Assembly (NCBI GenBank): GCA_030615765.1
Contig: JAUWYP010000011.1
Span: 21,867-53,866, forward strand
From: Dehalococcoidia bacterium
Lineage (GTDB): Bacteria; Chloroflexota; Dehalococcoidia; SM23-28-2
Length of the DNA stretch: 32,000 bases
Reading direction: 5' to 3'
In this document: piece after piece, positions 12,127 to 29,909 of the stretch
Position numbering within the stretch: position 1 is the first letter of the stretch
Layout: each line of letters starts with the position of its first letter
The notes under the pieces: model-generated
Told to the model about the DNA's origin: nothing
What the model saw: the letters and a program-made list of their open reading frames with translations, nothing else
Databases searched by the model: none
Translations under genes and position numbers: made by a program

Positions 12127-12300
12127 ATGGCGCGGGTGGGGGCTTCGGATGGCGGTAGCAGTCAGATCATGATCGAATTCGAGTGCGACTGTGGGAACGT
12201 AATTCGCGTCCCAAAGAGTCCTGCCCACAAAGAGGGCACGTGTCCAGGATGCCAGCGACTCACACGTGTTCCCTCGGGAGGAGAATACGTTGGAATTTGA
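12127..12300 (+). CDS. Small Zn-ribbon protein (57 aa; below the ORF-track cut-off)
   Basis: Own translation: MARVGASDGGSSQIMIEFECDCGNVIRVPKSPAHKEGTCPGCQRLTRVPSGGEYVGI*. Contains CxC...CxxC. SD AGGAG lies 10 nt upstream of ATG 12127; an alternative ATG is at 12169. The stop at 12298-12300 overlaps the start region of the next ORF. Confidence 0.5.
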   Translation: MARVGASDGGSSQIMIEFECDCGNVIRVPKSPAHKEGTCPGCQRLTRVPSGGEYVGI

Positions 12301-15300: not shown

Positions 15301-17548
15301 GAACGTGACGCGGACCCACACCGGCGTCTTCCTGCTCCAGGACGACTTCCGGCTGGCCCTGGAAAAGATGCCCGGCGACGGCGCCACGCCCGGGGGCAGG
15401 AGACCGCTGCTTGAGGTCTTCTCGCGAGCCCTGGGTCGCGAGAGTCACGTCCTTCATCGGCGGCCCGATCTCCTCTGGCAGCAGCTGTACAACCGTCTCC
15501 AGTGGTCGGAGGGTGGCCCCGAGCGGCTCGCGGCAGAGCTTCAACGCCGAACAAGGCCGGGCTCAGCGCCCTGGATGCGGGTCCGAACGCCTTCCCGGGA
15601 ATCGGAGGCGCTCATCCGAACGCTCGAGGGTCACTCTGGTCCGGTCAGAAGTTGCGTGCTGAGTCGTGACGGCTCCGTGGTCGTCTCAGCGGGCGACGAC
15701 TACACCGTCCGACTCTGGGATGCGACGACCGGCGCTGAGCGGGCCTGCCTCGTTGGCCATGACGATTGGGTCACCGGCTGCGCCATCAGCCGGGACGGCA
15801 GCTTCGTCGTATCGGCCAGCTCCGACCTCACCTTGAGGGTTTGGGATGCGGTCAGGGGGGTGGAGCGAGCGGTTCTCGGAGGCCACACGGCCGCGGTCAC
15901 AGCCTGCGCCATCAGCCCCGACGGCTCCTTCATCGTCTCGGGAAGTCGCGACGGGACGCTCAAGCTCTGGGACGTGGCCACCGGGAAGGAGCTTCGCACC
16001 CTTGAAGGCCATACGTCCGGTGTCAGGAGCTGCGCCATCAGCCCGGACGGCGCCTTCATCGTCTCGGCAAGCGAGGACGGGAGCCTCAGAATCTGGGACG
16101 CGGCTGGCGGGCGGGTACTCTGCACTCTCAAGGGTCACACCGACGCGGTCTTGGGCTGCGCGGTCAGCCCTGATGAGGCCTTCATCGTCTCGGCAAGTCG
16201 CGACGGGACGCTGAAGCTCTGGGACCCGTCGAGCGGGAGGGAGCTTCGCAGTCTCGAAGGCCACGGCGAGCCGGTTCGGGGCTGTGCCATCAGCGGTGAG
16301 GGCTCGTTCATCGTGTCGGCAGGCGACGACAGGGTGCTGAGGATCTGGGATTCGGCTACTGGCATCCAGCGAGCGACCCTCGTTGGCCACGCCGATCTTG
16401 TGACCGCATGCGCGGTGAGTTCTGATGGCTCGTTCGTCGTTTCCGCGAGTGACGACGGCACGCTCAAGGTCTGGGATATGACTCTCCTCCAAGAGCCCGC
16501 TGCCATCGAAGGCCACGACGGCGCAATCTCCGGCTGCGCCATCAGCGCTGACGGCGCGCTGGTAGCTTCGGCAAGTCAGGACGGGACCATCAAGGTCTGG
16601 GATTTGGCCACCGGGGTGGAGCGCGCAACTCTCGGCGGCCACATGGGCGGTGTTTTCAGTTGTACTTTCAGCCCGGACGGCTCCGCTCTTGTCTCGGCAA
16701 GTGACGATGGGACTCTCAAGGTCTATGATCCAGAGACCGGGGAGGAGCGGGCCACCCTGCGTGGCCACAGGGGCGGCGTCTTCGGCTGTGCAGTCAGCCC
16801 AGACGGTGCGTTCGTAGTCTCAGCCGGCGAAGACCGGACGCTCAAGCTCTGGGACATCGGCACCGGAATGGAGCGGGCAACGCTGGAGGGACATGTCTCG
16901 TCCGTCAATCGTTGTGCGGTCAGCCCGGACGGGTCGTTCGTCGTCTCGGCCAGCGATGACGAGACAGTCCGGATCTGGGATGCGGTAACCGGTCAGCAGC
17001 GCGCTCGGCTCGTCGGTCACGGCTCGTCGGTCTGGGGCTGCGCCGTGAGCCCTGATGCCGCGTTCGTCGTTTCAGCGAGTTGGGATGGGACCGTCAGGAT
17101 CTGGGACGTGAAGAGCGGCGAACAGCGGACTGTCCTGAACGGCCACACCGACCAGGTGTGGGACTGCTCGGTTACTCCCGACGGTGGGTTCATAGTCTCG
17201 GCGAGCCGGGACAAGACTCTGAGGGTCTGGGATACGTTCGGCCGAGAGTGCGCCTCGTTGCCGCTGCCCGGCGGAGCGCTGTCCGTGGCCCTACATCCCC
17301 ACCTGCCGTTCGCAGCCTGTGGCGACGAGAGCGGGAGCTTCTACCTCGTCGATCTTGTCGGCATCGAGTACGGGCCTATCATCGTCACAACGAGTCATGG
17401 AGGGACGGGACCGACCCTGCGCTGCCCCGCGTGTCACGGGATCTTCCCTCTCGAGCAGAGCTGGCTCGGAGCCGAGATGACGTGTCCAAACCGCGAGTGC
17501 GGCACTCCGCTCCGGGTCAACCCGTTCATCGCCGGCCTACAGCGATGA
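12266..17548 (+). CDS. NLR-like STAND protein: N-terminal wHTH-like region - TIR - DUF4062 - NACHT NTPase - helical module - 14 WD40 blades - C-terminal Zn-ribbon
   Basis: TIR: DADVVISYSHKDFDLAREIVRQLENASVKLWWDK...LCSINSMQSEDVRTELELA (aa ~97-190; conserved Glu169 at nt 12770-12772). DUF4062: RRFRIFVSSTYGDMKEERNALQRFVFPRL...NFIVLLGDRYGWRPLP (aa ~276-366). Walker A GESGSGKS at 14102-14125; Walker B LILFLDALDQ at 14360-14389. WD40: 13 canonical units GH..V..CA.SPDGSF.VSAS.D.TL.[VIL]WD plus 1 degenerate (15623-17365). C-terminus: LRCPACHGIFPLEQSWLGAEMTCPNRECGTPLRV. The start is GTG 12266 or TTG 12290, the latter with GGGAGGAG 6 nt upstream. Confidence 0.9.
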   Translation: MFPREENTLEFEEATSLVLRLLEEKGKAKNSEMMKLCGNDRELFDRVREDLIFNDLAEDKKGVGLVYVRPPSEVPPLEVPVAEDVQEVVASEPNIPDADVVISYSHKDFDLAREIVRQLENASVKLWWDKTGIRAGRWREKIVRAIRSSKTLTVLCSINSMQSEDVRTELELADYYRRNRLPLGLDETDYPESIIYCLVSWHKHRVPIMDRSVTEWLPEVLDALVALGVACDRPALPPPAVAPAPTAAKAVKPSWPERRAVPVTAPPVGRPGAGRRFRIFVSSTYGDMKEERNALQRFVFPRLRELCSVHGCRFEAVDLRWGVSQEAGLDQQAMPIALQEIDPCRRTTSRPNFIVLLGDRYGWRPLPSEIPAHEFEEICRRISADKQQRLKDWYFRDDNAVPPDYCLKPREMGGEYEDFAIWEAVERDLRSILLAAVKGMPLEAHDRMKYEASATEQEIAQGALRVPDAREHVYCFFRTIKDLPRDLSGRDFVDLDSEGNPDIDARRRLEELKHKLRGLLPDNIYDYEARWNDGGITTDHIDKLCEDVFDALSRIIEQEIERLEQVDPLDKEIADHDDFGQDRAKFFTGRADMLRKIGDYVKSGDSQPLAVWGESGSGKSALMARAAQQVREDLPNAEVVLRFLDATPESSDGRALLDSLCRQISRAYGADEATVPTDYREVVDDFPKRLALATEEKPLILFLDALDQLSDAEGARSLIWLPADLPEHVRLIVSTLPGECLSALESKLSDTSLVELKPMPPDEGRKLLDLWLEDAGRTLPQHQRDEVLSKFGAEGRPLYLKLAFEEARRWKSYTDPSDTVLAEGIRGIIRENLFARLSSPANHGKMIVSRSLGYLVAAKNGLSEDELLDVLSSDADVLSDFKRRSPISPEVERLPVVLWSRLYFDLEPYLTERSADGASLMTFYHRQLGEVVAEDYLAGDAKPGRHRALADYFDKQGLEIEGAPNLRKMSELPFQQTHGEMWEELFATLTNFPFLERKAADLGVLERTDAEGNVTRTHTGVFLLQDDFRLALEKMPGDGATPGGRRPLLEVFSRALGRESHVLHRRPDLLWQQLYNRLQWSEGGPERLAAELQRRTRPGSAPWMRVRTPSRESEALIRTLEGHSGPVRSCVLSRDGSVVVSAGDDYTVRLWDATTGAERACLVGHDDWVTGCAISRDGSFVVSASSDLTLRVWDAVRGVERAVLGGHTAAVTACAISPDGSFIVSGSRDGTLKLWDVATGKELRTLEGHTSGVRSCAISPDGAFIVSASEDGSLRIWDAAGGRVLCTLKGHTDAVLGCAVSPDEAFIVSASRDGTLKLWDPSSGRELRSLEGHGEPVRGCAISGEGSFIVSAGDDRVLRIWDSATGIQRATLVGHADLVTACAVSSDGSFVVSASDDGTLKVWDMTLLQEPAAIEGHDGAISGCAISADGALVASASQDGTIKVWDLATGVERATLGGHMGGVFSCTFSPDGSALVSASDDGTLKVYDPETGEERATLRGHRGGVFGCAVSPDGAFVVSAGEDRTLKLWDIGTGMERATLEGHVSSVNRCAVSPDGSFVVSASDDETVRIWDAVTGQQRARLVGHGSSVWGCAVSPDAAFVVSASWDGTVRIWDVKSGEQRTVLNGHTDQVWDCSVTPDGGFIVSASRDKTLRVWDTFGRECASLPLPGGALSVALHPHLPFAACGDESGSFYLVDLVGIEYGPIIVTTSHGGTGPTLRCPACHGIFPLEQSWLGAEMTCPNRECGTPLRVNPFIAGLQR
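15623..17365 (+). repeat. Tandem 126-bp WD40 coding repeats (moderately diverged)
   Basis: 14 blades at 42-aa periodicity. The repeats produce the long antisense artefact ORF 15686..16768(-). Confidence 0.85.
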
Positions 17549-19404
17549 CCCCCAAAGGCGGAATAGACACGCACGAGAGCGAACGTTCGAGCGGGACGCC
17601 TCCCCGCGCTCGGAGCGAGACGTTCTGGCGGGACCGTGTACGGCCTCTCTGGGAGGCCGTCGAGTGGCCGCTAGTCGGCCTCCTTGCGCTGCTCGCGCTG
17701 GGATTGGGGATCGACGGCTTCCGGCAGCACCTCGAGGCGAGCGGGCAATCGCACTCAGCGTCGGATGTGCTCTACCGGACGTTGCAGCTCTTCGTTCTCG
17801 AGTCCGGATGGGACTCGAGAGGCGTCAACTGGGAACTCGGCGTGGCGCGACTCTTGGCGCCTGCGGTGGCCGCGTACGCAGCCGTGCGAGCGCTGGGGGC
17901 GATCTTTCGCGAGCAGCTCCACTTGCTTCGGGTTCGCTCTTGGGGGAACCACGTCGTGATCTGCGGGTTGGGGCGAAAGGGCGTGCTCTTAGCGGAGGCG
18001 TTCCGCGCCCGCAAGGAACGGGTGGCGGTGATCGAGAAGGATGAGGAGAACAGTGCGGTCCGCAGGTGCCGCGACCAGGGCATCCCAGTCGTGATCGGCG
18101 ACGCGACGGACCTGGCCGTCCTCCGCAAAGCAGGAGTCCAGAAGGCCAAGTGTCTGATCTCCGTCTGCGGCGAGGACGGCGTTAATGCCGACGTGGCCGC
18201 TCATGCCCAGGAGCTGGTGGCCGCGAAGCCTCGTCGAAGCGGCTTCCTCCGCTCGTTCGTCCACGTCGTCGACCTCGAGCTGTGCACTCTGCTCAGAGAC
18301 AGGGTGGCTGTGGCCGGGAAGCGACACTCCTTCCGGCTCGAGCTCTTCAACGTCTTTGAGAGCGGCGCCCGCGGCTGGTTGAACGAGCACCTGCCCTTCG
18401 AGTCGGCTGGCCGAGAGGACGGCCGGCCGCATCTCCTCGTCGTCGGCGCCGGGCAGATGGGAAAGAGCCTCATCGTCGGGGCGGCGAGAAGGTGGCTCAC
18501 CCTCCATGCTGGCGCCGGCCCGCGCCCGCGGATCACCATCGTCGATCGGGAGGCGGAGCGGAGGAAGGACTCGCTACTCCTGCGCCACCCGCAGCTCGAG
18601 CAGGTCTGCGAGCTGGTCCCCGTCCGGACGGACGTCACCTGGCCGGAGTTCGAGGAGGGGAGGTTCCTCTTCGACGCCGAGGGACGCTGCGACGTGACCA
18701 CGATCTACGTCTGTCTCGACGACGACGTGCGCGGCCTAGCCGCGGGGCTGGACTTGTTGCAGCGGGTGCGTGAACACGGGGTCACGATCGTCGTTCGCAC
18801 CGCCGAGAAGGCGGGACTCGCGGCCGCGCTTGGGAGCGAGCGTCCAGGCGGCGACGGCTTGGAGCTCCTGCACGCCTTTCCGCTGCTCGACCTAACCTGC
18901 ACCCCGGAGCAGCTTCTCGGTGAGACCCCCAGCGAGCGCCTCGCCCGCACCATCCACGAGGACTACGTGCAGCGCGAAAGGGAAAAAGGCGAGACGGTCG
19001 AGACCAACCCCTCGATAGTCGAGTGGGACGAACTCCCCGAGAGCCTCAGGGAGTCGAACCGGCGACAGGCCGACCACCTCGGTGCTAAACTCAAGGCCGT
19101 CGGTTGCGGTAGCGCACCGCTGACCGGTTCGGAAGCGGAACCGATCGCCTTCTCCCCGGAGGAGGTGGAGTTGCTTGCGGAGCTCGAGCACAAGCGCTGG
19201 ATGGCCGAGCGCCTGTTCGAGGGCTGGACGCACGCGCCAGGCCCGAAGAATCTCGAGCGGAAAACAAGCCCCGCTCTCGTCGCCTGGGAGGAGCTGCCCG
19301 AAACCGAGAAGGAGAAGGATCGAGCGACGGCGGGCCAGCTGCCGGCGTGCCTCGCCCGCGCCAGCTTCCAGGTTTACCGCCTTGAGGAAGGAGCCGTGCG
19401 ATGA
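17545..19404 (+). CDS. Membrane protein: 2 TM helices (ion-channel-like) - TrkA_N/RCK Rossmann x2 - RyR domain x2
   Basis: The start ATG 17545 overlaps the upstream stop (ATGA 17545-17548); the track's longer 17080 start lies inside the NLR gene. TM helices: WPLVGLLALLALGLGIDGF and WELGVARLLAPAVAAYAAVRALGAIF. TrkA_N: HVVICGLGRKGVLLAEAF...VAVIEKD and HLLVVGAGQMGKSLIVGAA. RyR: ERLARTIHEDYVQREREKGETVETNPSIVEWDELPESLRESNRRQADHL and VELLAELEHKRWMAERLFEGWTHAPGPKNLERKTSPALVAWEELPETEKEKDRA. Confidence 0.85.
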   Translation: MTPKGGIDTHESERSSGTPPRARSETFWRDRVRPLWEAVEWPLVGLLALLALGLGIDGFRQHLEASGQSHSASDVLYRTLQLFVLESGWDSRGVNWELGVARLLAPAVAAYAAVRALGAIFREQLHLLRVRSWGNHVVICGLGRKGVLLAEAFRARKERVAVIEKDEENSAVRRCRDQGIPVVIGDATDLAVLRKAGVQKAKCLISVCGEDGVNADVAAHAQELVAAKPRRSGFLRSFVHVVDLELCTLLRDRVAVAGKRHSFRLELFNVFESGARGWLNEHLPFESAGREDGRPHLLVVGAGQMGKSLIVGAARRWLTLHAGAGPRPRITIVDREAERRKDSLLLRHPQLEQVCELVPVRTDVTWPEFEEGRFLFDAEGRCDVTTIYVCLDDDVRGLAAGLDLLQRVREHGVTIVVRTAEKAGLAAALGSERPGGDGLELLHAFPLLDLTCTPEQLLGETPSERLARTIHEDYVQREREKGETVETNPSIVEWDELPESLRESNRRQADHLGAKLKAVGCGSAPLTGSEAEPIAFSPEEVELLAELEHKRWMAERLFEGWTHAPGPKNLERKTSPALVAWEELPETEKEKDRATAGQLPACLARASFQVYRLEEGAVR

Positions 19405-22400
19405 CCGACGAAACTAGAAAGACGCGCGATCGGAGAGCGAGGGTGAGGACGCCGCGCTCGCAGCGCCGCGTCGTCGTAACCGGAGACGTGACGATGGACT
19501 GGAACCTCGCCCGAACGCGTCGAGCCGAAGGGGCGGGCGCGGCGTGGAACGCGGAGGACACGACCGAGGGCTACCTGCAGCTGGGCGGGGCGGCGCTGCT
19601 GGCGGACCTCATCCAGACGGTCGTCGATCGGTTTCCGCCGGGCGCCGAGAAGTTCGAAGTCCGCCGGGCCGGCCTGCCCGGTGGGTTCTCGCTGGAGGCT
19701 CCGGAGTTCCACCATTCCTTCGCGCTCTGGTCGGCCTACGAGTCAGCCGACACTCCCCGGGTCTGGCGAGTCAAGGAGTTCCTGGGGCTGGACCGCCCGA
19801 GCGCAGAAGCGCAGCCCGCACCCAAAGGGGAGCAGGTGGTCGATGACCCGGTCGAGGCGGACTTGGTGATCCTGGACGACGCGGCGCTTGGCTTCCGAGA
19901 CGATCGCGGGCTGTGGCCAAAGGTGATCAGGGAACCCGCTGGACTGCAACCGTGGGTCTTGCTGAAGATGGCGCGGCCCATCGCCCAGGGAGACCTGTGG
20001 GAGCACCTGCGGCAGCACTTCGCGGAGCGACTGATCGTCATCATGACGATCAACGACCTGCGCCTCTCCGAGGTACAGATCAGCCGCGAGCTCTCGTGGG
20101 AGCGAACGGGGGAGGATCTCGCCCGCGAGCTGGTGAGCAATCCGCGGGTGAACGCCCTCTCTCAATGCGCCCACGTGGTGGTGTCGCTGAACACCGACGG
20201 GGCGTTCTTGCTCTCCCGCCGGGATGAGCCAGATAGGCGGTCCCCGGGGGAGACGCGGCCCGAGTGCCACCTCTTCTTCGACCCCAAGACAATCGAGGGC
20301 GTATGGGCGCAGCAGTACCCCGGCGGGATGGTTGGCTACACCACCTGCCTGACTGCCGGTATCGCCCGCGAGCTCATGCTCATGCCTGCCGACCCCGATG
20401 TCCGCCGGGGCATCCAGCGGGGGCTCGCGGCGATGCGGACGCTCCACCTGGTCGGATATGGCTCACGGGAGCCCGACGCCCGGGCCGACCTAAAGTTCCC
20501 CTACGAGGACGTGGCCGATGAGCTGGCGCGAGAAAGGGAGCAATTCGCCGTCGCTGAGGTGCCTGCGCCACACGGCGGCTCGTGGAGGATTCTGGAGGCT
20601 CGTTACCCGGAGGGCCTCGAGCGGGTCGCCCGGCAGATCGCGCGCGAGGGGGCGGAGGTCGCGCTCGAGGGCGTGCCGCTCGGCCGCTTCGGCGATCTGT
20701 TGACGGTCGATCGCGCAGAGATCGAGGACTTCCGGAGCATCCGGTCCCTGATCCACGAGTACAGCCGCGGGCGGCCGACTCGTCCGCTCTCGATCGCGGT
20801 CTTCGGGCCGCCGGGCTCGGGGAAGTCGTTCGGGATCGTCCAGGTGGTCGAGTCTCTGCCCGGAGAATTCGAGCGGCTCGACTTCAACCTCTCTCAGCTC
20901 AACGAGCCGGCCGAGCTGCACGGCGCCTTCCACCAAGTGCGCGACGTTGCCCTGGCTGGCTGCATCCCGCTCGTCTTCTGGGACGAGTTCGACACGACCC
21001 TGGGCGGCACGCAGCTCGGCTGGCTGCGCTACTTCCTAGTGCCAATGCAGGACGGCACCTTCCAGGAAGGGGAGCTAATGCATCCCATCGGCCCTGCCGT
21101 CTTCGTCTTCGCCGGAGGCACGAGCCACCGGATGGCTGCGTTCGAGACGATGGCGATGAAGGACACGGGGGCGAAGGCGACCGACTTCCTGAGCCGGCTC
21201 AAGGGCTACGTCGACATCCTAGGGCCGAACCCCCGCGACGGGGACGCAGCCACTGATCCCTACTACCTGATCCGCCGGGCGATCTTGCTGCGCTCTGTGC
21301 TTCTGCGCGACCAGCCAGATTTGTTCGAGCTGCGGGATGGCAACAAGTTGCTGCGGATCGATTCCGGTGTGCTGCGCGCGTTCCTCGAGACGCGCGAGTA
21401 CCGACACGGAGCGCGTTCGATTAAGGCGATCGTGGCGATGAGCCTCCTCCACGGCAAGACGCACTTCGAGCGCTCCGCCTTGCCCGCGGCGGGGCAGCTC
21501 GACGTTCACGTCCAGGCAGACGACTTCCTCGCGCTGGCACAGCGACACGAGCCGGAGGAGGAGGCGCTCGAGGCGCTCGCAGAGGCCGCGCACGTCGTCT
21601 ATTGCGCGGGGAGGCTCGAGGAGGGTCACAGGTGGCGCGAGCGGGACGTCGCGTATCTCGAGCGCCACAGCCTTCTCAAGCCGTTTGCCGCTTCGGCGTA
21701 CGACGGCACGGAGATGCTACCCGCCCTCGTCTCCTGGGAGAACCTGAGCGGCGAGGACAGGGAGCAGAACCGCGGCCAGGTGCGCCACATCCCGAGCCGT
21801 CTCGAGGCCCTCGGTTACGTCATGCGGAAGGCGCGCGGCGGCGTCGACCCCACTGCTTTCGTCCTCTCTAGGCGCATGCTTGAGCTCCTCGCCGAACAGG
21901 AGCACGAGCGCTGGCTCTGGGCAAGGCTGCGAGCGGGCTGGCGCTACGGCGCGATCAGGAACAACCGCCGGAAGCTCCATCCGGCGCTGCTGCCCTGGCG
22001 TCCGCTCTCGCTGGAGGAGCGCGAGCAGAGCTATGGGGTCTGCGAAGACCGCCTGGGGCCGGGCGAGCTTGTTGAAGGCGACAAGGAGAAGGACCGCGAG
22101 GCCGTGCGCGAGATGACACAGATCGTCGCCGCGGCAGGGTGCGAGATCGTGAAGGTGCGTGAGCCGGCCGTGATCGTCGGGGTAACGGGCCACCGCATCC
22201 TGGCTGAGGTCGAGAAGATCAAGAAGGGAATAGGGGAGGCGCTCGATCGGGTCGAGCGGTCGTTCCCTGGGAAGCCCCTCACGGTGATGTCCGCCCTGGC
22301 CGAGGGTGCCGACTGCCTCGTGGTGAAGCGGGTACTCGCGCGCTCGACCGGAGGCCTCGTCGCCGTTCTGCCGCTGGCCGCAGCCGACTACGAGACCGAC

Positions 22401-22730
22401 TTCGAGTCAGATGAGTCCAAACAGGAGTTCCGAAACTTGCTGGCTCAGGCAGACGAGACGATCGAGCTGCCGCCCGCTGCCACTCGGGAGGCGGCCTACG
22501 AGGCGGTGGGCGAGTACATCGTCGATCACTGCGACGTGCTCGTCACCGTCTGGGACGGCCAGGGCGCGCAGGGCCAGGGCGGGACAGGCGGGGTGGTGGC
22601 GCGCGCCCGCGAGCGTGGCCTCCCGATCGCCTGGGTGCACGCCGGCAACCGCAAGCCCGGAACGAACGAGCCGACCTCCCTGGGCACTGAGCAGGGAATG
22701 GTGACCTTTGAGCGTCTCGAGCCCGCCTGA
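19401..22730 (+). CDS. Multidomain protein: degenerate PfkB/ribokinase-like domain - AAA+ ATPase - RyR x2 - C-terminal SLOG (LOG/DprA/YpsA-like) domain
   Basis: ATG 19401 overlaps the upstream stop (ATGA 19401-19404). PfkB-like order of motifs: RVVVTGDVTMDWNL / LGGAALLADL / LIVIMTINDLRLSEV / AHVVVSLNTDGAFLLS / PGGMVGYTTCLTAGIAREL; the GAGD catalytic motif is not conserved. AAA+: Walker A GPPGSGKS (20805-20828), Walker B PLVFWDEFD, and YRHGARSIKAIV (sensor-2-like). RyR: MLELLAEQEHERWLWARLRAGWRYGAIRNNRRKLHPALLPWRPLSLEE...DKEKDREAV, plus an upstream copy (aa ~722-808). SLOG: VIVGVTGHR...SALAEGADCLVV...LVTVWDGQGAQGQGGTGGVV (22167-22655). Confidence 0.85.
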   Translation: MTDETRKTRDRRARVRTPRSQRRVVVTGDVTMDWNLARTRRAEGAGAAWNAEDTTEGYLQLGGAALLADLIQTVVDRFPPGAEKFEVRRAGLPGGFSLEAPEFHHSFALWSAYESADTPRVWRVKEFLGLDRPSAEAQPAPKGEQVVDDPVEADLVILDDAALGFRDDRGLWPKVIREPAGLQPWVLLKMARPIAQGDLWEHLRQHFAERLIVIMTINDLRLSEVQISRELSWERTGEDLARELVSNPRVNALSQCAHVVVSLNTDGAFLLSRRDEPDRRSPGETRPECHLFFDPKTIEGVWAQQYPGGMVGYTTCLTAGIARELMLMPADPDVRRGIQRGLAAMRTLHLVGYGSREPDARADLKFPYEDVADELAREREQFAVAEVPAPHGGSWRILEARYPEGLERVARQIAREGAEVALEGVPLGRFGDLLTVDRAEIEDFRSIRSLIHEYSRGRPTRPLSIAVFGPPGSGKSFGIVQVVESLPGEFERLDFNLSQLNEPAELHGAFHQVRDVALAGCIPLVFWDEFDTTLGGTQLGWLRYFLVPMQDGTFQEGELMHPIGPAVFVFAGGTSHRMAAFETMAMKDTGAKATDFLSRLKGYVDILGPNPRDGDAATDPYYLIRRAILLRSVLLRDQPDLFELRDGNKLLRIDSGVLRAFLETREYRHGARSIKAIVAMSLLHGKTHFERSALPAAGQLDVHVQADDFLALAQRHEPEEEALEALAEAAHVVYCAGRLEEGHRWRERDVAYLERHSLLKPFAASAYDGTEMLPALVSWENLSGEDREQNRGQVRHIPSRLEALGYVMRKARGGVDPTAFVLSRRMLELLAEQEHERWLWARLRAGWRYGAIRNNRRKLHPALLPWRPLSLEEREQSYGVCEDRLGPGELVEGDKEKDREAVREMTQIVAAAGCEIVKVREPAVIVGVTGHRILAEVEKIKKGIGEALDRVERSFPGKPLTVMSALAEGADCLVVKRVLARSTGGLVAVLPLAAADYETDFESDESKQEFRNLLAQADETIELPPAATREAAYEAVGEYIVDHCDVLVTVWDGQGAQGQGGTGGVVARARERGLPIAWVHAGNRKPGTNEPTSLGTEQGMVTFERLEPA

Positions 22731-22778
22731 TCCGCCGGGGCCGGCCTTGAGCGGTCTGCATTGCTGGCGGCCAAAGTC

Positions 22779-22955
22779 ATGAAGCGACTCTGCGCCGGTG
22801 ATGTTTCATACTCCTCTATCGTGAGAGAAATCAGGCGCAAGAGGCCGGGGGCGCTGTCTAACCCGTGGTTCGTCCGGTTTCTGCTGCGAGGAGAGCAAGA
22901 GAGGGAGATACAGAGTCTGCTTCGCGAGGGAGATGAAGATCAGCAGTATGGGTGA
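22779..22955 (+). CDS. Possible small protein (58 aa), HTH-like; weak call
   Basis: MKRLCAGDVSYSSIVREIRRKRPGALSNPWFVRFLLRGEQEREIQSLLREGDEDQQYG. Lies in a visibly less GC-rich intergenic stretch. No clear SD. Confidence 0.3.
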   Translation: MKRLCAGDVSYSSIVREIRRKRPGALSNPWFVRFLLRGEQEREIQSLLREGDEDQQYG

Positions 22956-23031
22956 GCTCAGCCGATTGTCCTATTCTGCTGACCGTGACACAGAGCGGAC
23001 TGACGTGAGTGCTCTCGTAGGACTAGTTCGC

Positions 23032-23040
23032 ATGATATAA
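23032..23040 (+). promoter_or_regulatory. Extended -10 promoter element (TGaTATAAT) upstream of the 865-aa WD40 gene
   Basis: catGaTATAATg at 23032-23040, 34 nt before ATG 23074. No good -35. Confidence 0.35.
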
Positions 23041-23073
23041 TGCGCGTACGAATCGCACAAGTAGGTACGAGGA

Positions 23074-25671
23074 ATGACGCACAGCGATGACGGCAACCCG
23101 GCTCAACCGGCACCGTCCTCCCTAGCCGAGCACCGCGAGCAGCTCGCCCTCCTTTCGCGCACGCTGGAGCGCGAGGCGCACATCTTGGCGCGGGAGCCGG
23201 AGGTGCTGGCCTCGCACCTGCACAACATGGTCTACCTGGACGAGGGCGATGATGGCCCCGCGGGCCCGCTGCTGGCTCGGGCACGCGACGCCCTGTCCGG
23301 ACGCCCCTGGCTGCGCCTCATCAACCGGCCACAGGTCGGAATAAGCCGCCGGGCACTGATCCGTGTCTTGGGCGACAGAATCGGTGCCACGTGTCTGGCT
23401 TGGTCATCCGACGGGCGAGTGCTGGCCGTCGGAACCATAGAGGGAATAGCACTGTGGATGGCAGATGGGATACCGGGTCCGGGCCTAGATCTTCGAGTCA
23501 GCGTAGAGACGCTGATCTGGTCACCAGACGGTCGACAGATCGCGTGGACGGACGAAGTTGGGAAGGCCCATGTGTGGACGCCCGGAACAAGCGAGCATCC
23601 AAGAAGCGTACAGGGCCACGGCCGAGACCAGGTCACATCGGTAGGCTGGTTGGATAACGAGACGCTCTTTCTCGCCACCGAGTTCGACGGCATTTTCGTC
23701 TGGCGTCTAGGAGCTCCAGGTCTGCGCCCCAGAGTGCTTGTGAGACAGAAAGAAGATGAGAGCGTGGAGACAGCTGCAGTGAGCCCGGATGGGAAAATGC
23801 TTGCCTGGACCGAGTACTCGAGTGTCTACATCAAGTCTCTTATCCCGCCCGGCCGTCGCACCTGGCTCGGTGCGTGCCACGATGTCGTTAAGTACTTGTC
23901 GTGGTCTGTGGATTCAATGTACCTTGCCTGCGCGGGGGACGGCTATGGGGTCACGATCTGGAGCGTTGAGACGAGGGCACCATTGACTATCGACGACGCG
24001 GCCCCTCCCCTGGCGTGGTCGCCGCGCGAATACACGTTGGCGTCCGGAGGGGATGGAACAGGAATTTACCTGTGGGATGGCCGCACCGGGAAGCCTACGT
24101 CGGTCCTCTACGGCCATCTCGCCTGGCTTGAGAGTCTAGCTTGGGCTCCAGACGGAAGGACTCTAGCATCAGGCAGCCACGATGCGGTGCGTTTGTGGGA
24201 CGCGGAGACGGCTACAAGGTGGCCGGGAACCAGGCAGAGGAAGCTTACCGAAATCCAGCGGCGTCGCTTGCCGGAGGTGAAGGATGTCGAGTGGTCCTCC
24301 GATGGGCAAGCATTTGCCTCAACCCATTACGAAACAAGCCGAAGGAAATCAGCTGTCTGCGTCTGGAAGGGGAAAACCGGTGACGAAGTCGCGATTCGTG
24401 AGGGTCTCGGGTTTGGCCAGCCCCGAATTGCCTGGTGTCCCGCTATTGATGTCCTATCGATGGCAATTGATTTCAACCTCATCTCGTGGGCTATTCCGGT
24501 CGATAGGCCGCTCAAAGGGCACGAAGGCGAAATCGATGCCCTGGCGTGGTCACGGCGCGGCGACTTGCTGGCCTCCGGTGATACAAAGGGAACGACACGC
24601 ATTTCCTGTGCCGCTAGCGTGTTTCATCTAGCTAAGCGTATGGGGGTAGATCAGTGGGCATCGCGATTGGGCGACGAGGATGATTGGACATGGGAGACCG
24701 GCGAAGGGTCCATCTGCAACTTGGAGTGGTTAGGAGAGGACGAGGTGTTGGTGGGGTTCGTACTCGGCCCGGGAATAGACATGGAGGCAGCAGAAGGTGG
24801 CGGTGCCTCGTATGTGAATCCACAGAAAGCGGCCATTTGGCATCTTGACTCAGGACGTCAACACCTGATCCCAGTCGGTTACGGGAGCGGCCGTCGCGAC
24901 GCCTTGAGGTGCTCGCCCGTCGGGTATCGCTTTGCAGTGTCGCATCTGAAACACCCCAAGAAGGAGCCGACAAGCCTGCAAGATGCCATGGCGCCTCTGC
25001 AGCATCTTACATCGATATGGGACGCTCGAGGTCTGCGCTGCGAGGTGGAGTTGGAGGGCGACGTAGCGACGTGCGGGTGGTCTCCAGACGGCTCTATACT
25101 GGTACTAGAGCGCGAAGATGAGTTGGTTCTTTGGGACAGCACTAGGCGGAAACCACGTGAGGTCTTGAAAGGCCATGGGCAGATTCAGGATGCAAGCTGG
25201 TCACCGAACAGCAGCTCATTTATATGGACCTCCGTTGATGCGAGCGTATGGATGTGGAACACGACGAACGGTGTAACGCGTCTGCTCCCGCCAGCTAGCG
25301 GGGGAGCGTCACGTCTTCTGTGGGCTCCTGACGGTGAGAAGTTGGTTTTGGCTGGCGTCTATGAGTACGACGCTGACTCCGAAGAGGACTTCCGAGAAGA
25401 GCAGTCAAGTCCTCGGTTGCCTCAAGTGGTGGACTTGTGGGATATGATCTCTGGCAGTTCAGTCGCGCGTGCGTACTGCCTCTCCCCTGTTCTTGCCCTC
25501 CAGTTCAGCTCGGACGGCCGCATCTTGCGGGCAGCGGACGATGGCAGCGCCACCGGCAACCGGCCCATCCCCTACCTCTTCGAGCTGTGCAACATCGAGA
25601 TAGGTTCGCCGGCGGTGCGCCCTGTCTCGCCACAGGAAACGCCGGGCGTGGAGCGAAATGGCGAAGCTTGA
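23074..25671 (+). CDS. Divergent WD40/beta-propeller repeat protein with an NLR-type pre-WD40 helical N-terminus and no NTPase domain
   Basis: The N-terminus LSRTLEREAHILAREPEVLASHLHNMVYL...RPWLRLINRP parallels LGRESHVLHRRPDLLWQQLYNRLQW...APWMRVRTP of the NLR. Degenerate WD units follow: WSPDGRQIAWTDEVGKAHVW, VSPDGKMLAW, LYGHLAWLESLAWAPDGRTLASGSHDAVRLWD, LKGHEGEIDALAWSRRGDLLASGD, LKGHGQIQDASWSP. Confidence 0.8.
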   Translation: MTHSDDGNPAQPAPSSLAEHREQLALLSRTLEREAHILAREPEVLASHLHNMVYLDEGDDGPAGPLLARARDALSGRPWLRLINRPQVGISRRALIRVLGDRIGATCLAWSSDGRVLAVGTIEGIALWMADGIPGPGLDLRVSVETLIWSPDGRQIAWTDEVGKAHVWTPGTSEHPRSVQGHGRDQVTSVGWLDNETLFLATEFDGIFVWRLGAPGLRPRVLVRQKEDESVETAAVSPDGKMLAWTEYSSVYIKSLIPPGRRTWLGACHDVVKYLSWSVDSMYLACAGDGYGVTIWSVETRAPLTIDDAAPPLAWSPREYTLASGGDGTGIYLWDGRTGKPTSVLYGHLAWLESLAWAPDGRTLASGSHDAVRLWDAETATRWPGTRQRKLTEIQRRRLPEVKDVEWSSDGQAFASTHYETSRRKSAVCVWKGKTGDEVAIREGLGFGQPRIAWCPAIDVLSMAIDFNLISWAIPVDRPLKGHEGEIDALAWSRRGDLLASGDTKGTTRISCAASVFHLAKRMGVDQWASRLGDEDDWTWETGEGSICNLEWLGEDEVLVGFVLGPGIDMEAAEGGGASYVNPQKAAIWHLDSGRQHLIPVGYGSGRRDALRCSPVGYRFAVSHLKHPKKEPTSLQDAMAPLQHLTSIWDARGLRCEVELEGDVATCGWSPDGSILVLEREDELVLWDSTRRKPREVLKGHGQIQDASWSPNSSSFIWTSVDASVWMWNTTNGVTRLLPPASGGASRLLWAPDGEKLVLAGVYEYDADSEEDFREEQSSPRLPQVVDLWDMISGSSVARAYCLSPVLALQFSSDGRILRAADDGSATGNRPIPYLFELCNIEIGSPAVRPVSPQETPGVERNGEA

Positions 25672-26399
25672 TGTAACGGAGCCCCTGGCGAGAGCACTGA
25701 TGCGCGAGGTCGCTCCCATCGTGGAGCGGCTCACGGGCTGGCGGCTGCACGTCGAGCAGATGGCGGTGCAGATCCTTCCCAAAACCCAGGCGTACGAAGA
25801 GATCTTCCTCGCAAGACTCCAGCGCCTCTCGCCAAGCGGGGACCTCTCTGCCTTCAGCGAAGGGATCGCCCGTCGGCTGGCGGAGTACGTGCTGGAGGGG
25901 ACAACCCTCGCTGCCTATGACCACACGAACGGCACTCTGTACGTCGTCCGGGAGAATGTGGACGACAGCGACAAGGACGGGCTCAAGGTCATCCTCGGCC
26001 ACGAGCTGGTGCACCGGGGGCAGGGTCTTCATCACCCGGACCTGCTCCGACGCACGGAACAGGTGGCCGCTGAGGTGCTCTCCGCGGAGACCATATCCGG
26101 CAAGATGGAGAAGATCCAGGAGGCCAATGCGGTCTTGACCCTTTTTGGAGGGCCACGCGACCCTGGTACAGGGCGTCCTGCGCCGCCTGTACCCGAAGGC
26201 GAAAATCGAGCGCCATTGGGGGATAACGGCGCTCCTCTTTCGCAGCCTCGGCTTCCTCAAGGCGCGCCAGTACACCGTCGGCACCAAGCGTCTGGCCGCG
26301 CTCAAGTCACCGAAAGAACTGGAGGCGCTCTACCGAAGCCCTGGGCGAGTTCAAGAGCTGTTCGGCGCCGCATCAAGAAGGAAGAAGGTCACGTCGTGA
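25658..26399 (+). pseudogene. HExxH zinc metallopeptidase (DUF2342/Zincin_2-like), interrupted by a frameshift in a T5 run at 26142-26146
   Basis: Frame A (25658-) contains VILGHELVHRGQ and reads normally up to ..EANAVLTL, then becomes Pro/Gly-rich noise. Frame B (track ORF 26145..26399) continues LEGHATLVQGVLRRLYPKAKIERHWG..., giving the family-typical L(L)EGHA motif if one T is removed. ATG 25658 overlaps the end of the WD40 gene by 14 nt. Confidence 0.7.
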
Positions 26400-26515
26400 G
26401 GGCTGTTGATGACGCGAACTCCTTGGAGGGCGGGGCGTTGGCTGCGAGTTCCCGTTGATGCGGGGGAGGGTTGCGCCCCGCCTGGGCGGTCGGGTACCGA
26501 ACTTGACGGGGAACC

Positions 26516-26743
26516 CTAGGAGAAGTGGTATCGGATAACCTTCCTGCCATTCACCACGTCGCCGGTCTTCACTGACTCGCTGGACACAACGATTCGGATG
26601 TCCGCATCAGGGTAGCCCTTTGAATTCGTCTCCACGTACCGTCCTGCGGGCAGCTTCTGACTCTCGTGCCAAACGTAGATGTCGATCTCGCGATCGCCGG
26701 CTGCCAGCATCTGGTCAAGGACTGTAGCGTATCCCTCAGGCAT
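26516..26743 (-). CDS. Small hypothetical protein (75 aa)
   Basis: Internal ATG 26743 preceded by GGAGGAGG with 6-nt spacing: MPEGYATVLDQMLAAGDREIDIYVWHESQKLPAGRYVETNSKGYPDADIRIVVSSESVKTGDVVNGRKVIRYHFS. No family recognised. Confidence 0.5.
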   Translation of the reverse strand: MPEGYATVLDQMLAAGDREIDIYVWHESQKLPAGRYVETNSKGYPDADIRIVVSSESVKTGDVVNGRKVIRYHFS

Positions 26744-26861
26744 CTTCGACCTCCTCCGCGGCTGGCCGCTCGGATGCGTATTGCCCAAGGCGAGCTGCAT
26801 TCTCTGCGTCAGAACGATTACTAGCCCTGGCCATTGAGGTAGCCCGGCGGCCGCCGCAGTG

Positions 26862-26890
26862 ATATTACACGGCTATGGAGATGGTGGCAA
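26862..26890 (-). promoter_or_regulatory. sigma70-type promoter for the 26743 small gene
   Basis: Minus strand reads TTGCCA (26890-26885) - 17 nt - TAATAT (26867-26862). Confidence 0.5.
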
Positions 26891-27008
26891 CGGGTTAGCC
26901 CCTCCATACCTGAGCGTTCTCTGGCGGCCCGTGAGCGGCTGGCTCGTGTGGTAAAATGTGTCCGCCTTGGGAGGTATTGACAATGACGGGTGGGCATAGT
27001 GGCCAGCC

Positions 27009-29909
27009 ATGAGCGCTCCTGAATCCCTGACCAGCGCCGACCGACGGTCGACCGTCGAGACCTTCGCGCGCGCCCTCAACCGGGAGGCGCACAACCTCAC
27101 CCGGCGCCCCGACCTGCTGTGGCAGCAGCTCTACAACCGGTTGCAGTGGGAGGACGAGCCGGTCGCGCAGGTGCTGGCGCCGGAGCTGGCCCGCCGGACA
27201 GCCCCGGGGGCCACCCCGTGGCTGAGGACGAGGACGCCCCTCCGCGAGTCAAAGGCTCTCATCCGTATCCTCGCGGGCCATAGCAACTCGGTCACCGCCT
27301 GCGCGGTGAGCCCGGACGGCTCCTTTATCGTCTCGGCCAGCTTCGACGAGACCCTGAGGGTCTGGGATACCGCCACGGGGCGGGAGCGGGCCACCCTGGC
27401 CGATCATACCAACTTTGTCAATGCCTGCGCCGTCAGCCCCGATGGCTCCTTCATCGTCTCCGCTAGCGAAGATGGCACGCTGAAGGTGTGGAACGCACGG
27501 ACAGGGCAGGAGCGGGCCACCCTGGAAGGCCATACCCTGGGGGTCCTTGCCTGCGCCGTCAGCCCCGACGGCTCCTTCATCGTCTCCGCAAGCCAGGATA
27601 AGACCCTTAAGGTCTGGGACGCAAAGACGGGGCAGGAGCGGGCCACCCTGGAAGGCCATACCCTGGGGGTCCTTGCCTGCGCTGTCAGCCCCGATGGCTC
27701 CTTCATCATCTCGGCCAGCCTAGACAAGACCCTTAAGGTCTGGGACGCAAGGACGGGGCGGGAGCGGGCCACCCTGGAAGGCCATACCCTGGGGGTCCTT
27801 GCCTGCGCCGTCAGCCCCGACGGCTCCTTCATCGTCTCCGCTAGCGCGGACCGGACCCTGAAGATCTGGGAGGCAGAGACGGGAGCGGAGCGGGCCACCC
27901 TGCCCGGCCATACCGACGGGGTCTTTGCCTGCGCGGTCAGCCCCGACGGCTCCTTCATCGTCTCCGCAAGCCTAGACAAGACCCTTAAGGTCTGGGACGC
28001 AAAGACGGGGCGGGAGCGGGCCACCCTGGAAGGCCACACCGACAGCGTCTGGGCCTGCGCGGTCAGCCCCGACGGCTCCTTCATCGTCTCGGGAAGTTCG
28101 GACAAGACCCTTAAGGTCTGGGACGCGCCGACAGGGGAGGAGCGGGCCACCCTGGAAGGCCATACCGGCGGAGTCCTTGCCTGCGCCGTCAGCCCCGACG
28201 GCTCCTTCATCGTCTCCGCTAGCGAGGATAAGACCCTGAGGGTCTGGCAGGCAGGGACGGGGGAGGAGGCCACCCTGCCCGGCCATACCGACGGGGTCTT
28301 TGCCTGCGCCGTCAGCCCCGACGGCTCCTTCATCGTCTCCGCAAGCCTAGACAAGACCCTTAAGGTCTGGGACGCAAAGACGGGGCGGGAGCGGGCCACC
28401 CTGGAAGGCCACACCGACAGCGTCTGGGCCTGCGCGGTCAGCCCCGACGCCTCCTTCATCGTCTCGGGAAGTTCGGACAAGACCCTGGAAGTCTGGGACG
28501 CGGAGACGGGGCGGGAGCGGGCCACCCTGGCCGGCCATACCCGCGACATCCGAGACTGCGCCGTCAGCCCCGACGGCTCCGTCATCGTCTCCGCACGCGA
28601 AGAAGCGACGCTGAAGGTCTGGGATGCAAGGACGGGGGAGGAGGGGGCCACTCTGGTCGGGCATACCCGCGACATCCGAGACTGCGCGGTCAGCCCCGAC
28701 GCCTCTCTCATCGTCTCCGCAAGCAGAGATGGGACGCTGAAGGTCTGGGATGCAAGGACGGGGGAGGAGGGGGCCACCCTGGTCGGCCATACCCGCGACA
28801 TCCTAGACTGCGCCGTCAGCCCCGACGGCTCCTTCATCGTCTCGGGAAGTTGGGACAAGACCCTCAAAGTCTGGGACGCGGAGACGGGGCGGGAGCGGGC
28901 CACCCTGGAAGGCCACACCGACAGCGTCTGGGCCTGCGCCGTGAGCCCCGACGCCTCTCTCATCGTCTCCGCAGGTTATGACAATACCCTGGAGGTTTGG
29001 GAGGCAGGAACGGGCGTGGAGCGGGCCACCCTCCTCCTCTTGGGCGAGGGGAGGAGCGTAGCTTTGCACCCTCGACGGCCCCTCGCTGTCTGCGGCGATA
29101 AAGGCGGAAACGTCTACCTGGCAGAACTCGTGGGCATCCAGTATCGCCCCATGACCGCGACGCCAGCGGAGAGACTGCCGAAGAGGGCTGCGCCCCCAGC
29201 GGAAGCGATGCCGAGCCCGTCTCCTGCGGAAGTGACGAGGCTCAACAGCCTGGCGACTGTCCACTACAAGGAGGGCAAGTACGCTGAGGCGCTGCCCCTG
29301 TATCAGCGCGCGGTCGAAATTGGCGAGTGGCTCCTCGACGCTGACCACCTGGAACTCGCAACCGCCCTCAACGGCCTGGCCATGGTCCTCTATATGCAGG
29401 GCAGATATGCTGACGCGCTGCCTCTATGTCAGCGCGCGCTGGCGATCTACGAACGGGCCCTCGGCCCCGACCACCCCCATGTAGCAAGTAGCCTCGACAA
29501 CCTGGCACAACTCTGCGAGAAGCTGGGAGAGCGCACCGAGGCTCTCACTCTCTATCAGCGCGCGCTGGAAATCCGGCAACATGCTCTTGGCGCCGACCAC
29601 CCTGAGGTGGCAAGTAGCCTGAGGAACTTGGCCCGGCTGTACTACGAGCAGGGCAAGTATGCCGAGGCGCTACCTCTCTACCATCGTGCCCTGGAAATCC
29701 GGGAACACACCCTTGGCCCCGATCACCCCGAGGTCGCATACAGTCTCAACGGCCTGGCAGTGACCTACTACGGCCAGGGCAAGTACGCCGAAGCCCTGCC
29801 TCTCCTCAGGCGCGCGGTCAGCATTGCTGAAGCAACGCTCGGGCCTGAGTACCCTAGCACGGCCGCGTTCAGGAGAAACCTGAAGGCCTGCCAGAGTGCG
29901 GTGCGCTGA
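27009..29909 (+). CDS. NTPase-less NLR sensor paralogue: pre-WD40 helical module - ~15 highly conserved WD40 blades - TPR (TPR_12/kinesin-light-chain type) repeats
   Basis: The N-terminus FARALNREAHNLTRRPDLLWQQLYNRLQWEDE...ATPWLRTRTPLRESKALIRILAGH is ~65% identical to aa ~1052-1122 of the 1760-aa NLR. There are 14 canonical units GHT..V..CAVSPDGSFIVSAS.DKTLKVWDA.TG.ERATLE plus a degenerate blade and the shared tail SVALHP..P.A.CGD..G..YL..LVGI.Y.P. Then ~7 TPRs of the type LN.LA.LY..QGKYAEALPLYQRALEI.E..LGPDHP.VA.S. Confidence 0.9.
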   Translation: MSAPESLTSADRRSTVETFARALNREAHNLTRRPDLLWQQLYNRLQWEDEPVAQVLAPELARRTAPGATPWLRTRTPLRESKALIRILAGHSNSVTACAVSPDGSFIVSASFDETLRVWDTATGRERATLADHTNFVNACAVSPDGSFIVSASEDGTLKVWNARTGQERATLEGHTLGVLACAVSPDGSFIVSASQDKTLKVWDAKTGQERATLEGHTLGVLACAVSPDGSFIISASLDKTLKVWDARTGRERATLEGHTLGVLACAVSPDGSFIVSASADRTLKIWEAETGAERATLPGHTDGVFACAVSPDGSFIVSASLDKTLKVWDAKTGRERATLEGHTDSVWACAVSPDGSFIVSGSSDKTLKVWDAPTGEERATLEGHTGGVLACAVSPDGSFIVSASEDKTLRVWQAGTGEEATLPGHTDGVFACAVSPDGSFIVSASLDKTLKVWDAKTGRERATLEGHTDSVWACAVSPDASFIVSGSSDKTLEVWDAETGRERATLAGHTRDIRDCAVSPDGSVIVSAREEATLKVWDARTGEEGATLVGHTRDIRDCAVSPDASLIVSASRDGTLKVWDARTGEEGATLVGHTRDILDCAVSPDGSFIVSGSWDKTLKVWDAETGRERATLEGHTDSVWACAVSPDASLIVSAGYDNTLEVWEAGTGVERATLLLLGEGRSVALHPRRPLAVCGDKGGNVYLAELVGIQYRPMTATPAERLPKRAAPPAEAMPSPSPAEVTRLNSLATVHYKEGKYAEALPLYQRAVEIGEWLLDADHLELATALNGLAMVLYMQGRYADALPLCQRALAIYERALGPDHPHVASSLDNLAQLCEKLGERTEALTLYQRALEIRQHALGADHPEVASSLRNLARLYYEQGKYAEALPLYHRALEIREHTLGPDHPEVAYSLNGLAVTYYGQGKYAEALPLLRRAVSIAEATLGPEYPSTAAFRRNLKACQSAVR
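27261..29040 (+). repeat. Tandem 126-bp WD40 coding repeats with very high internal nucleotide identity
   Basis: For example, 27895-28127 and 28270-28502 (233 nt, two blades each) differ at 5 positions by my alignment. The offset is 375 nt, which is 3 units minus one codon. Confidence 0.9.
29229..29885 (+). repeat. TPR repeat array (coding, ~7 x 42 aa units)
   Basis: Recurrent ..Y..QGKYAEALPLYQRALEIREH.LGPDHPEVA.SLN.LA.. with 126-nt periodicity. Confidence 0.8.

Follow-up and report, generated by a model that had tools for sequence, protein, structure and literature searches.

A recombining WD40 array in an NTPase-less, TPR-tailed protein of a Dehalococcoidia bacterium

The gene described here lies in a stretch of 32,000 nucleotides (nt) from a Dehalococcoidia bacterium (GenBank assembly GCA_030615765.1, contig JAUWYP010000011.1, positions 21,867 to 53,866 of the forward strand). 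This whole stretch is called the window, and positions are counted from its first letter. The gene occupies 27009-29909 on the plus strand. Going by the list of open reading frames (ORFs) and the translation, it encodes a protein of 966 amino acids (aa), made up of an N-terminal domain, 14 WD40 units, a closing blade, a linker and five TPR_12 repeats, without a nucleoside triphosphatase (NTPase) domain. Taken as a whole, the product is probably a stand-alone WD40-TPR protein of the sensor type with 15 blades, in which recombination homogenises the units, and in which the residues on the top face of the propeller are diverse.

Repeated recombination within the gene keeps the DNA of the units in this array alike. 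This involves both unequal exchange and gene conversion, with breakpoints that fall inside units. The conclusion follows from low synonymous divergence, a duplicated block, chimeric units and the loss of rank correspondence with related arrays. The repeats were described in a first-pass annotation made from the sequence alone; its observation is confirmed, and its interpretation is partly supported.

The array and the recombination within it

The array spans 27276-29036 on the plus strand, and holds 13 units of 126 nt and one of 123 nt. Using the motif CAVSPD as an anchor yields 14 units, which in the GH...ATLE register start at 27276, 27402 and so on up to 28911. Tandem Repeats Finder, run on the window, reports 27297-29032 with a period of 126, 13.8 copies and 81% matches. 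Superimposed on the same array it also finds a period of 378, with 4.6 copies and 84% matches. The first-pass annotation spoke of 14 units of 126 bp that share long identical stretches, and both this software and the unit alignment bear that out. Pairwise nucleotide identity among the 14 units averages 80% (range 69-99%), and amino acid identity 75%. For comparison, the 13 units of the true NOD-like receptor (NLR) gene of the window are 62% identical at the nucleotide level, and in 54 related loci the arrays have between 49% and 89%. The focal array clearly exceeds what is usual for a protein of its kind.

Unit 8 (28158-28280, plus strand) is the one of 123 nt. It lacks codon 38 and reads TGEEATL there, which is why the offset over three units is 375 nt, as the annotation had correctly explained. 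Two copies of a block of 235 nt are found at this offset, with 5 mismatches between them. The first copy (27893-28127, plus strand) consists of the end of unit 5, unit 6 and most of unit 7. The second (28268-28502, plus strand) consists of the end of unit 8, unit 9 and most of unit 10. The core of this match, 27895-28127 against 28270-28502 with 5 mismatches in 233 nt, had been noted earlier; it reaches 2 bases further in the 5' direction, to 27893. The block has an identity of 98%, against a background of 80%. The longest exact direct repeat of the array, 139 nt at an offset of 375, lies inside the duplicated block. The next is 81 nt long at an offset of 252, and there is also one of 58 nt.

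Synonymous divergence (dS) was computed with the Nei-Gojobori method over all pairs of units, using 34 scaffold codons. It comes to 0.34, and to 0.26 for units 3-13. In the NLR array, 9.5 kb upstream, the equivalent scaffold codons have a dS of 1.25. The ratio of nonsynonymous to synonymous divergence (dN/dS) of the focal scaffold is 0.18-0.20; the fold, meaning the unit apart from its variable positions, is under purifying selection.

The identity is also spread unevenly. Units 6 and 9 are 99% identical, units 3, 4, 6 and 9 share 92-94%, and the pairs 7/10 and 11/12 stand at 91%. Units 1, 2 and 14 are the most diverged, with 0.75-0.76 for terminal units versus 0.80-0.85 for central ones. This is as expected if exchange is rarer at the ends of an array.

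Mismatch counts identify unit 13 (28785-28910, plus strand) as a chimera. Its first 45 nt are like units 11 and 12, and its last 81 nt are like unit 10. Compared to unit 11, there is 1 mismatch in the first part and there are 24 in the last part; compared to unit 10, these numbers are 12 and 5. Over the last 81 nt, units 11 and 12 differ from unit 13 at 22-24 positions. With units 12 and 10 compared in a Fisher test, this breakpoint has p=0.0004. Unit 5 is a mosaic: its first 63 nt equal those of unit 3 except for one site, after which 15 sites differ.

Concerted evolution was assessed against the closest relatives, at loci L030, L031, L035 and L036. For the focal array, no diagonal of same-rank units is seen. 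Its units are 0.80 identical to each other, versus means of 0.69-0.73 to the units of these relatives. The control is a pair of stable arrays (L035 and L036), where same-rank units are 79-93% identical and others 55-75%. The unequal recombination proposed in the first-pass annotation is therefore upheld by the block duplication, the chimeric units and the lack of positional orthology with relatives. A permutation of polymorphic columns in the manner of GENECONV also returns p<0.05 for 19 of 91 pairs. This result is set aside, because clustered hypervariable codons inflate the run lengths.

A diversity-generating retroelement was considered as the source of variation, and is unlikely. The variation comes as whole unit types and chimeras, and no reverse transcriptase match was found by Pfam among the scanned ORFs.

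Some similarity exists between the two arrays of the window. Unit 3 of the NLR (15881-16006) has an exact run of 35 nt in common with focal units 7 (28068-28097) and 13 (28821-28850). Its identity is also higher with the focal units, at a mean of 72% and at most 78%, than with its sister units in the NLR (66%). Perhaps the two arrays once exchanged sequence, or an ancestral consensus has merely been retained.

Variable positions and selection

Positions within a unit are numbered such that the G of GH is 1. Entropy per position is highest at 23, 33, 7, 4, 36, 42, 25 and 5, in that order. Within the protein, positions 9-14, 16, 18, 20, 26-27, 30, 34-35, 37 and 39-41 are invariant. The variable motifs of the first-pass annotation correctly included positions 4, 5, 7, 23 and 25, but positions 33, 36 and 42, which are about as variable, had been written as dots in the scaffold.

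The placement of these positions comes from an AlphaFold model of the single sequence, which is used for strand positions only. Its mean predicted local distance difference test score (pLDDT) is 68, with values of 55-80 in the propeller and around 90 in the TPR part. With moderate confidence, the predicted strands per unit are A at 6-11, B at 17-22, C at 26-31 and D at 37-42. This puts positions 4, 5 and 7 in the D-A loop and at the beginning of strand A; the B-C turn holds positions 23 and 25, and strand D ends with position 42. The D-A loop and the B-C turn are conventionally counted as the top face of a WD40 propeller. Positions 5, 7 and 23 presumably correspond to residues of the arginine-binding pocket of WDR5 (A47/S49, S91, F133, D107, F149, Y191). 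The variation is predicted to be mostly on the face that WD40 proteins use for binding.

A similar placement is known from fungi. Paoletti et al. 2007 found that the strongly selected codons 7, 9, 25 and 27 of Podospora repeats flank the conserved residues 8 and 26, in the D-A loop or strand A start and in the B-C turn. Focal positions 5, 7, 23 and 25 flank the conserved V6 and D24, with the same spacing. These four codons were fixed a priori from the Podospora paper, replacing sites picked for their variability. Their summed entropy is reached by only 27 of the 111,930 possible sets of four positions. Across 24 related proteins, the five positions that vary most within a protein are 7, 23, 5, 4 and 25.

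Only a few unit types account for the variable residues: LG-L; DG-F with L at 23; DS-W with SGS; and RD-I-R-D. As these types recur, duplication and recombination of types are the main source of the diversity.

At the four a-priori codons, nonsynonymous divergence (dN) is 1.19, or 3.5 times the dS of the other 38 codons. Nucleotide diversity is 0.62 at the first and second positions of these codons, versus 0.29 at 12 four-fold sites of invariant codons (Mann-Whitney p=0.0014). This contrast contradicts a single burst followed by neutral drift. It fits positive selection, or else the selective retention of old differences amid homogenisation. Diversifying selection at the top-face codons is in this way suggested, not proven.

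Protein architecture, relatives and neighbours

Pfam recognises WD40 in 14 stretches of the 966-aa product (E 3.5e-176) and TPR_12 in 5 stretches, plus TPR_10, and no further family. No match to NACHT, NB-ARC, AAA or another NTPase was found in the product by Pfam or PADLOC. PADLOC makes no defence-system assignment beyond generic TIR, repeat and TPR matches. The N-terminal domain (27009-27275, plus strand) is about 88 aa long and has no Pfam family; it is predicted to be helical, with low confidence. It is a homologue of the linker that precedes the WD40 array in the NLR. Focal residues 5-93 are 62% identical to NLR residues 1038-1125, which sit between the NACHT/winged-helix part and the array. 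An N-terminal effector or signalling domain was not found in the focal product, the N-terminal 88 aa of which match only this linker. What the product does have is a C-terminal repeat sensor, consisting of WD40 and TPR_12.

The array is followed by a degenerate closing (15th) blade, SVALHP..AVCGDKGGNVYLAELVGIQY, at 29037-29144 on the plus strand. This blade is kept in the NLR and in most stand-alone relatives, and three strands are predicted in it at residues 683-706. After the linker come the five TPR_12/TPR_10 repeats (29220-29906, plus strand; Pfam TPR_12 E 3e-80; pLDDT 87-96), which stand in for the zinc-ribbon tail of the relatives.

The true NLR (12266-17548, plus strand) has the order TIR_2, DUF4062, NACHT, HTH_NWD1, linker, 13 WD40 units, closing blade and a cysteine-rich zinc-ribbon tail. 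The focal gene is paralogous to just one part of such NWD1/TEP1-like bacterial NLRs (DUF4062-NACHT-WD40), their sensor arm. By its domain content it is not an NLR; it probably encodes a stand-alone sensor-type protein without an NTPase. The possibility that the gene is a frameshifted NLR is ruled out by an in-frame stop at 26997-26999, 9 nt before the ATG, and by a small minus-strand ORF in the 550 nt upstream. No obvious promoter or ribosome-binding consensus was found upstream of the gene.

A metagenome scan with the two linker sequences produced 196 relatives, and 80 loci were kept. The resulting family is defined operationally in this analysis. In nearly all of the 80 loci the linker-like segment opens the ORF, with an in-frame stop 0-30 codons upstream, and all 79 relatives that were compared are nearer to the focal N-terminus than to the NLR linker. 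The usual layout is the N-terminal domain, 13-15 WD40 units, a closing blade (..ALHP..CGD.GG.VYL..L.G) and a zinc-ribbon-like tail (RCPxC...CPxxxC..LRVNPF). The focal protein fits the family in the domain of about 90 aa that opens its ORF, in its unit number and in its closing blade. It departs from the family in its tail, where the zinc ribbon is replaced by the five TPR_12 repeats. This TPR_12 tail has no match among the other family proteins of the 80 loci. No WD40-TPR orthologue came out of a genome scan with closing blade plus TPR tail; its matches were all ordinary TPR_12 proteins, none above 54% identity. Among species-representative genomes, no close relative was found.

The first-pass annotation counted 15 blades versus 14 in the NLR. 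These counts are right, at 14 units plus the degenerate closing blade in the focal gene and 13 units plus a closing blade in the NLR. The recent expansion read into them is not indicated, because relatives have 13-15 units plus the closing blade, and sometimes up to 19-20.

The genes upstream of family members were counted in 31 informative loci, each with at least 2.5 kb of upstream sequence. In 20 of these 31 there is a DUF4062-NACHT gene on the same strand, and in 11 of these 20 it is within some 300 nt. The NACHT proteins linked to the family have no repeats, and end in a similar zinc-ribbon tail. Such repeat-less DUF4062-NACHT proteins, with a tail of the form RCPxC...CPxxxC..VNPF, are encoded for example at 699-3221 of L030, 3-3077 of L073 and 6455-9967 of L052. 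In these three loci the NACHT and WD40 ORFs are in frame, so an NLR split by a nonsense mutation was considered there. It was rejected: the NACHT protein has a zinc-ribbon tail of its own, and a separate start codon for the WD40 gene follows within a few codons. Stand-alone WD40 proteins and the window's fused NLR have the zinc-ribbon-like tail in common with the repeat-less NACHT proteins, and it might be a pairing module.

Database searches with the DUF4062-NACHT module of the NLR give a comparable picture. Among its 120 closest relatives, about 105 have no repeat domain (770-870 residues), about 10 are fused to WD40 and 3 to TPR_12. Judged by such comparisons, this clade seems to use the split arrangement as a rule, to which the fused NLR of the window is an exception. 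Within the sensor family, the focal gene is an orphan-looking member with a TPR tail.

Sensor genes are present in tandem, 2-4 per locus, at 22 of the 80 loci. In the tandem sensors of L044 (starts near 4476, 6952 and 11393) and L099 (5291 and 10583), units are about as identical between genes (0.69-0.75) as within genes (0.68-0.79), which points to an exchange of units among the paralogues, like that in the NWD family of Podospora.

The repeat pattern is not new. Hu et al. 2017 catalogued prokaryotic WD40 repeats with high internal identity and variable hotspot positions, using an identity cut-off of at least 0.7. The focal array passes this cut-off with a mean amino acid identity of 0.75 over 14 units, where the averaging is slightly different. 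Like the highly repetitive WD40 proteins, it has tandem units that are recognised by profile and a low synonymous divergence, and it shares with the prokaryotic ones a link to TIR/STAND immunity-type loci. The same pattern has been discussed for the WRAP propeller of Nostoc and for further propellers that were amplified recently (Dunin-Horkawicz et al. 2014; Pereira and Lupas 2022). The best solved match is PDB 2YMU, the 14-blade WRAP propeller of Nostoc punctiforme Npun_R6612, with near-identical blades (E 9e-174). Npun_R6612 also has a WD40 unit of 42 residues some 14 times over, with high internal identity and variable hotspots on the predicted top face. It differs in its fusion to a STAND ATPase and in the absence of synonymous differences between its units, whereas the focal protein has no ATPase, a dS of 0.34, mosaic units and a TPR_12 tail.

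The HET-E/HET-D/NWD genes of Podospora anserina (Paoletti et al. 2007; Chevanne et al. 2010) share with the focal gene the internal conservation, the exchange of units and the hypervariability of the corresponding four top-face codons. HET-E and HET-D are fungal NLRs with HET and NACHT, whereas this is one bacterial gene without NACHT. In Podospora, positive selection has been shown with site models on 69 units, and allele polymorphism is documented; here, selection is suggested from one gene. The first-pass annotation stated that the same pattern occurs in bacterial NLR-like proteins. Published work does so for bacterial NLRs, and explicitly draws the parallel to Podospora.

With NWD1/TEP1-like NLRs, such as the one in the window, the focal protein shares a sensor arm of paralogous parts, namely the N-terminal domain, the WD40 units and the closing blade. 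It has no DUF4062, TIR, NACHT or zinc-ribbon tail, and TPR_12 instead. DUF4062 was recently reported to be a TIR-like NADase, which takes the effector position in human NWD1, NWD2, TEP1 and NPHP3. Apaf-1, with NB-ARC and WD40 propellers of 7 and 8 blades, is similar in having around 15 blades as a STAND ligand sensor (PDB match E 7e-73). Its blades are diverged and covalently linked to the ATPase, however; those of the focal protein are near-identical, and there is no ATPase.

The repeat phenomenon itself is then already known from fungal NLRs and bacterial WD40 proteins, and the stand-alone WD40-TPR form is a variant of it. In a limited literature search, no description was found of the NTPase-less, TPR-tailed architecture, nor of tandem stand-alone sensors beside DUF4062-NACHT genes.

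The window has further genes of interest. The stop of the NLR overlaps the start (ATGA, 17545-17548) of a gene with TrkA_N and RyR domains. By coordinates, that gene in turn overlaps by 4 nt (19401-19404) the start of a gene for a 1109-aa RyR-domain protein. The NLR appears to be translationally coupled to these two RyR-domain proteins. Some 670 nt upstream of the NLR start there is an IS3-type transposase (HTH_21, rve, rve_3) on the minus strand, at 10731-11594. A second stand-alone propeller gene, of 865 aa and with WD40/PD40 propellers according to Pfam, is located at 23074-25671 on the plus strand. It opens with the same N-terminal domain as the focal protein, at 41% identity over 91 aa (E 2.7e-8), and is therefore a second gene of the sensor family in the window. 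It overlaps by 14 nt with an ORF of 266 aa (25658-26458) that has no Pfam family. Another moderately repetitive propeller is encoded at 7674-8825. This is of the PQQ/BamB beta-propeller type, with a period of 120 nt, 7.8 copies and 75% matches.

Competing explanations and meaning

An array like this could also stem from one recent amplification of a single blade, followed by drift. This is the 'young propeller' of Lupas and co-workers. The variable positions would then be unconstrained loop residues, with no ongoing shuffling or diversifying selection. There is something to be said for this: recently amplified WD40 propellers are common in bacteria, around 20% of prokaryotic WD40 proteins look young (Hu et al. 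2017), and amplification has been reported independently in close homologues. A within-codon dN/dS below 1 at the a-priori sites agrees with it, and the same positions are also the most variable ones in old arrays. It is nevertheless an unlikely origin for the focal array. Pairwise identities are spread over 69-99% instead of being uniform, a block of several units stands at 98%, chimeric units have sharp breakpoints, and the units at the edges are more diverged. In addition, replacement divergence on the top face is saturated (dN 1.19) compared to the silent divergence of the scaffold (0.34), where a burst plus neutral drift predicts similar values. Even less probable is a functionless gene in decay, left over from an NLR whose effector and NACHT parts are gone. 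In favour of this, the N-terminus has its homologue in an internal linker of the NLR, propellers of this WD40 branch are often disrupted, and the lack of an obvious promoter or ribosome-binding consensus would suit a dead gene. But the ORF is intact over 966 codons with a scaffold dN/dS of 0.18, and it has acquired a well-formed TPR domain. Two further facts speak against decay, which is very improbable: nearly all of the 80 relatives open with the same N-terminal domain, and all 79 compared have the focal N-terminus, and not the linker of the NLR, as their nearer counterpart.

The number and order of the units could in part be an artefact of assembly, if the array was collapsed, expanded or mis-joined. 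The exact repeats of 139, 81 and 58 nt would make this easier. The only independent assembly found, a short-read contig of the same organism from Logan (SRR14872660), also stops inside unit 2 and, at its other (5') end, inside the NLR array, at a 30-mer common to NLR unit 3 and focal units 7 and 13. Furthermore, the focal protein is absent from a protein collection in which its neighbours are present. In this exact look-up among 15 billion proteins, neither the focal product (with two alternative starts tried as well) nor the NLR product was found; four non-repeat proteins of the contig (865, 1109, 266 and 168 aa) are there from NCBI, the first three also from Logan. Still, all 14 of the 14 units are distinct in sequence, and the block copies are separated by 140 nt of diverged sequence, including the unique unit of 123 nt. 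High internal identity is moreover found independently in related metagenome arrays. The number of three-unit blocks depends on one assembly, with exact repeats of up to 139 nt, but the core observation is independent of the exact count, and an artefact is improbable as the explanation.

Several things weigh against the favoured reading, that of a stand-alone sensor with a recombining array and a diverse top face. Variable positions 33 and 36 fall in the predicted C-D loop, which is on the bottom, opposite face. Of the top-face variation claimed in the first-pass annotation, the peak at the Podospora-equivalent codons stands, and two of the eight variable positions do not conform. Confidence in the structural model, which was made from the single sequence, is moderate (pLDDT 68), and faces were assigned from strand positions instead of 3D coordinates. 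At the four a-priori codons the within-codon dN/dS is 0.79, from very few silent sites. A value of 1.67 for the eight most variable codons was discarded as evidence, because these sites were chosen by their own variability. Also, the four-fold sites of a gene with 68% GC are not strictly neutral, since GC-rich codon usage constrains them. Neither sites nor pairs are independent, and the assumptions behind tree-based reasoning do not hold under gene conversion. Selection is not demonstrated, because of the 0.79 and because gene conversion confounds the test. The entropy and dN/dS check that the annotation proposed for the 42-aa units was run. It finds the variable sites to be non-random and mostly on the predicted top face, but within-codon dN/dS is not above 1 at the a-priori codons. 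Of its 'rapidly evolving, recombination-prone recognition module', the proneness to recombination holds up, and diversifying selection is suggested only (p=0.0014; within-codon 0.79). The Logan short-read contig, 100% identical to 15917-27473 of the window (11,557 nt), ends inside focal unit 2. Finally, within the window there is no repeat-less NACHT gene beside the focal gene. The sole NACHT gene (12266-17548) has a WD40 arm of its own, and the idea of action in trans derives from synteny in other organisms.

On the favoured reading, the top face would be a ligand-binding surface, the specificity of which is renewed by shuffling a few unit types. In Apaf-1-type STAND proteins, WD40 propellers hold the ATPase inactive until a ligand binds. 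By analogy, binding of a ligand may be relayed to a NACHT partner, which in this family is usually a separate protein. The focal protein may likewise act with a NACHT partner in trans, as its relatives beside repeat-less DUF4062-NACHT genes probably do. The TPR tail that takes the place of the usual zinc ribbon could be a docking module or a second recognition module. The focal protein could work with the neighbouring NLR, work with a NACHT protein encoded elsewhere, or be a decoy or competitor. A bolder and more doubtful proposal is that the DUF4062-NACHT systems of uncultured bacteria work as split NLRs. These would consist of one NTPase/effector and several interchangeable, separately encoded tandem WD40 sensors that renew their faces by exchanging units, and the focal protein would be a trans sensor, or a decoy, for the upstream NLR.

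The repeat finding alone is one more example, because the pattern had already been described for fungal NLRs and bacterial WD40 proteins. What this case adds are clear bacterial chimeras below the level of the unit, with a control in the same window in the form of the old array of the paralogous NLR. It also adds a recombining array in an NTPase-less protein, from a large family of separately encoded WD40 sensors that are often in tandem and beside DUF4062-NACHT genes. If action in trans is true, then bacterial NLR-like immunity would include a modular layout, with one engine and many sensors.

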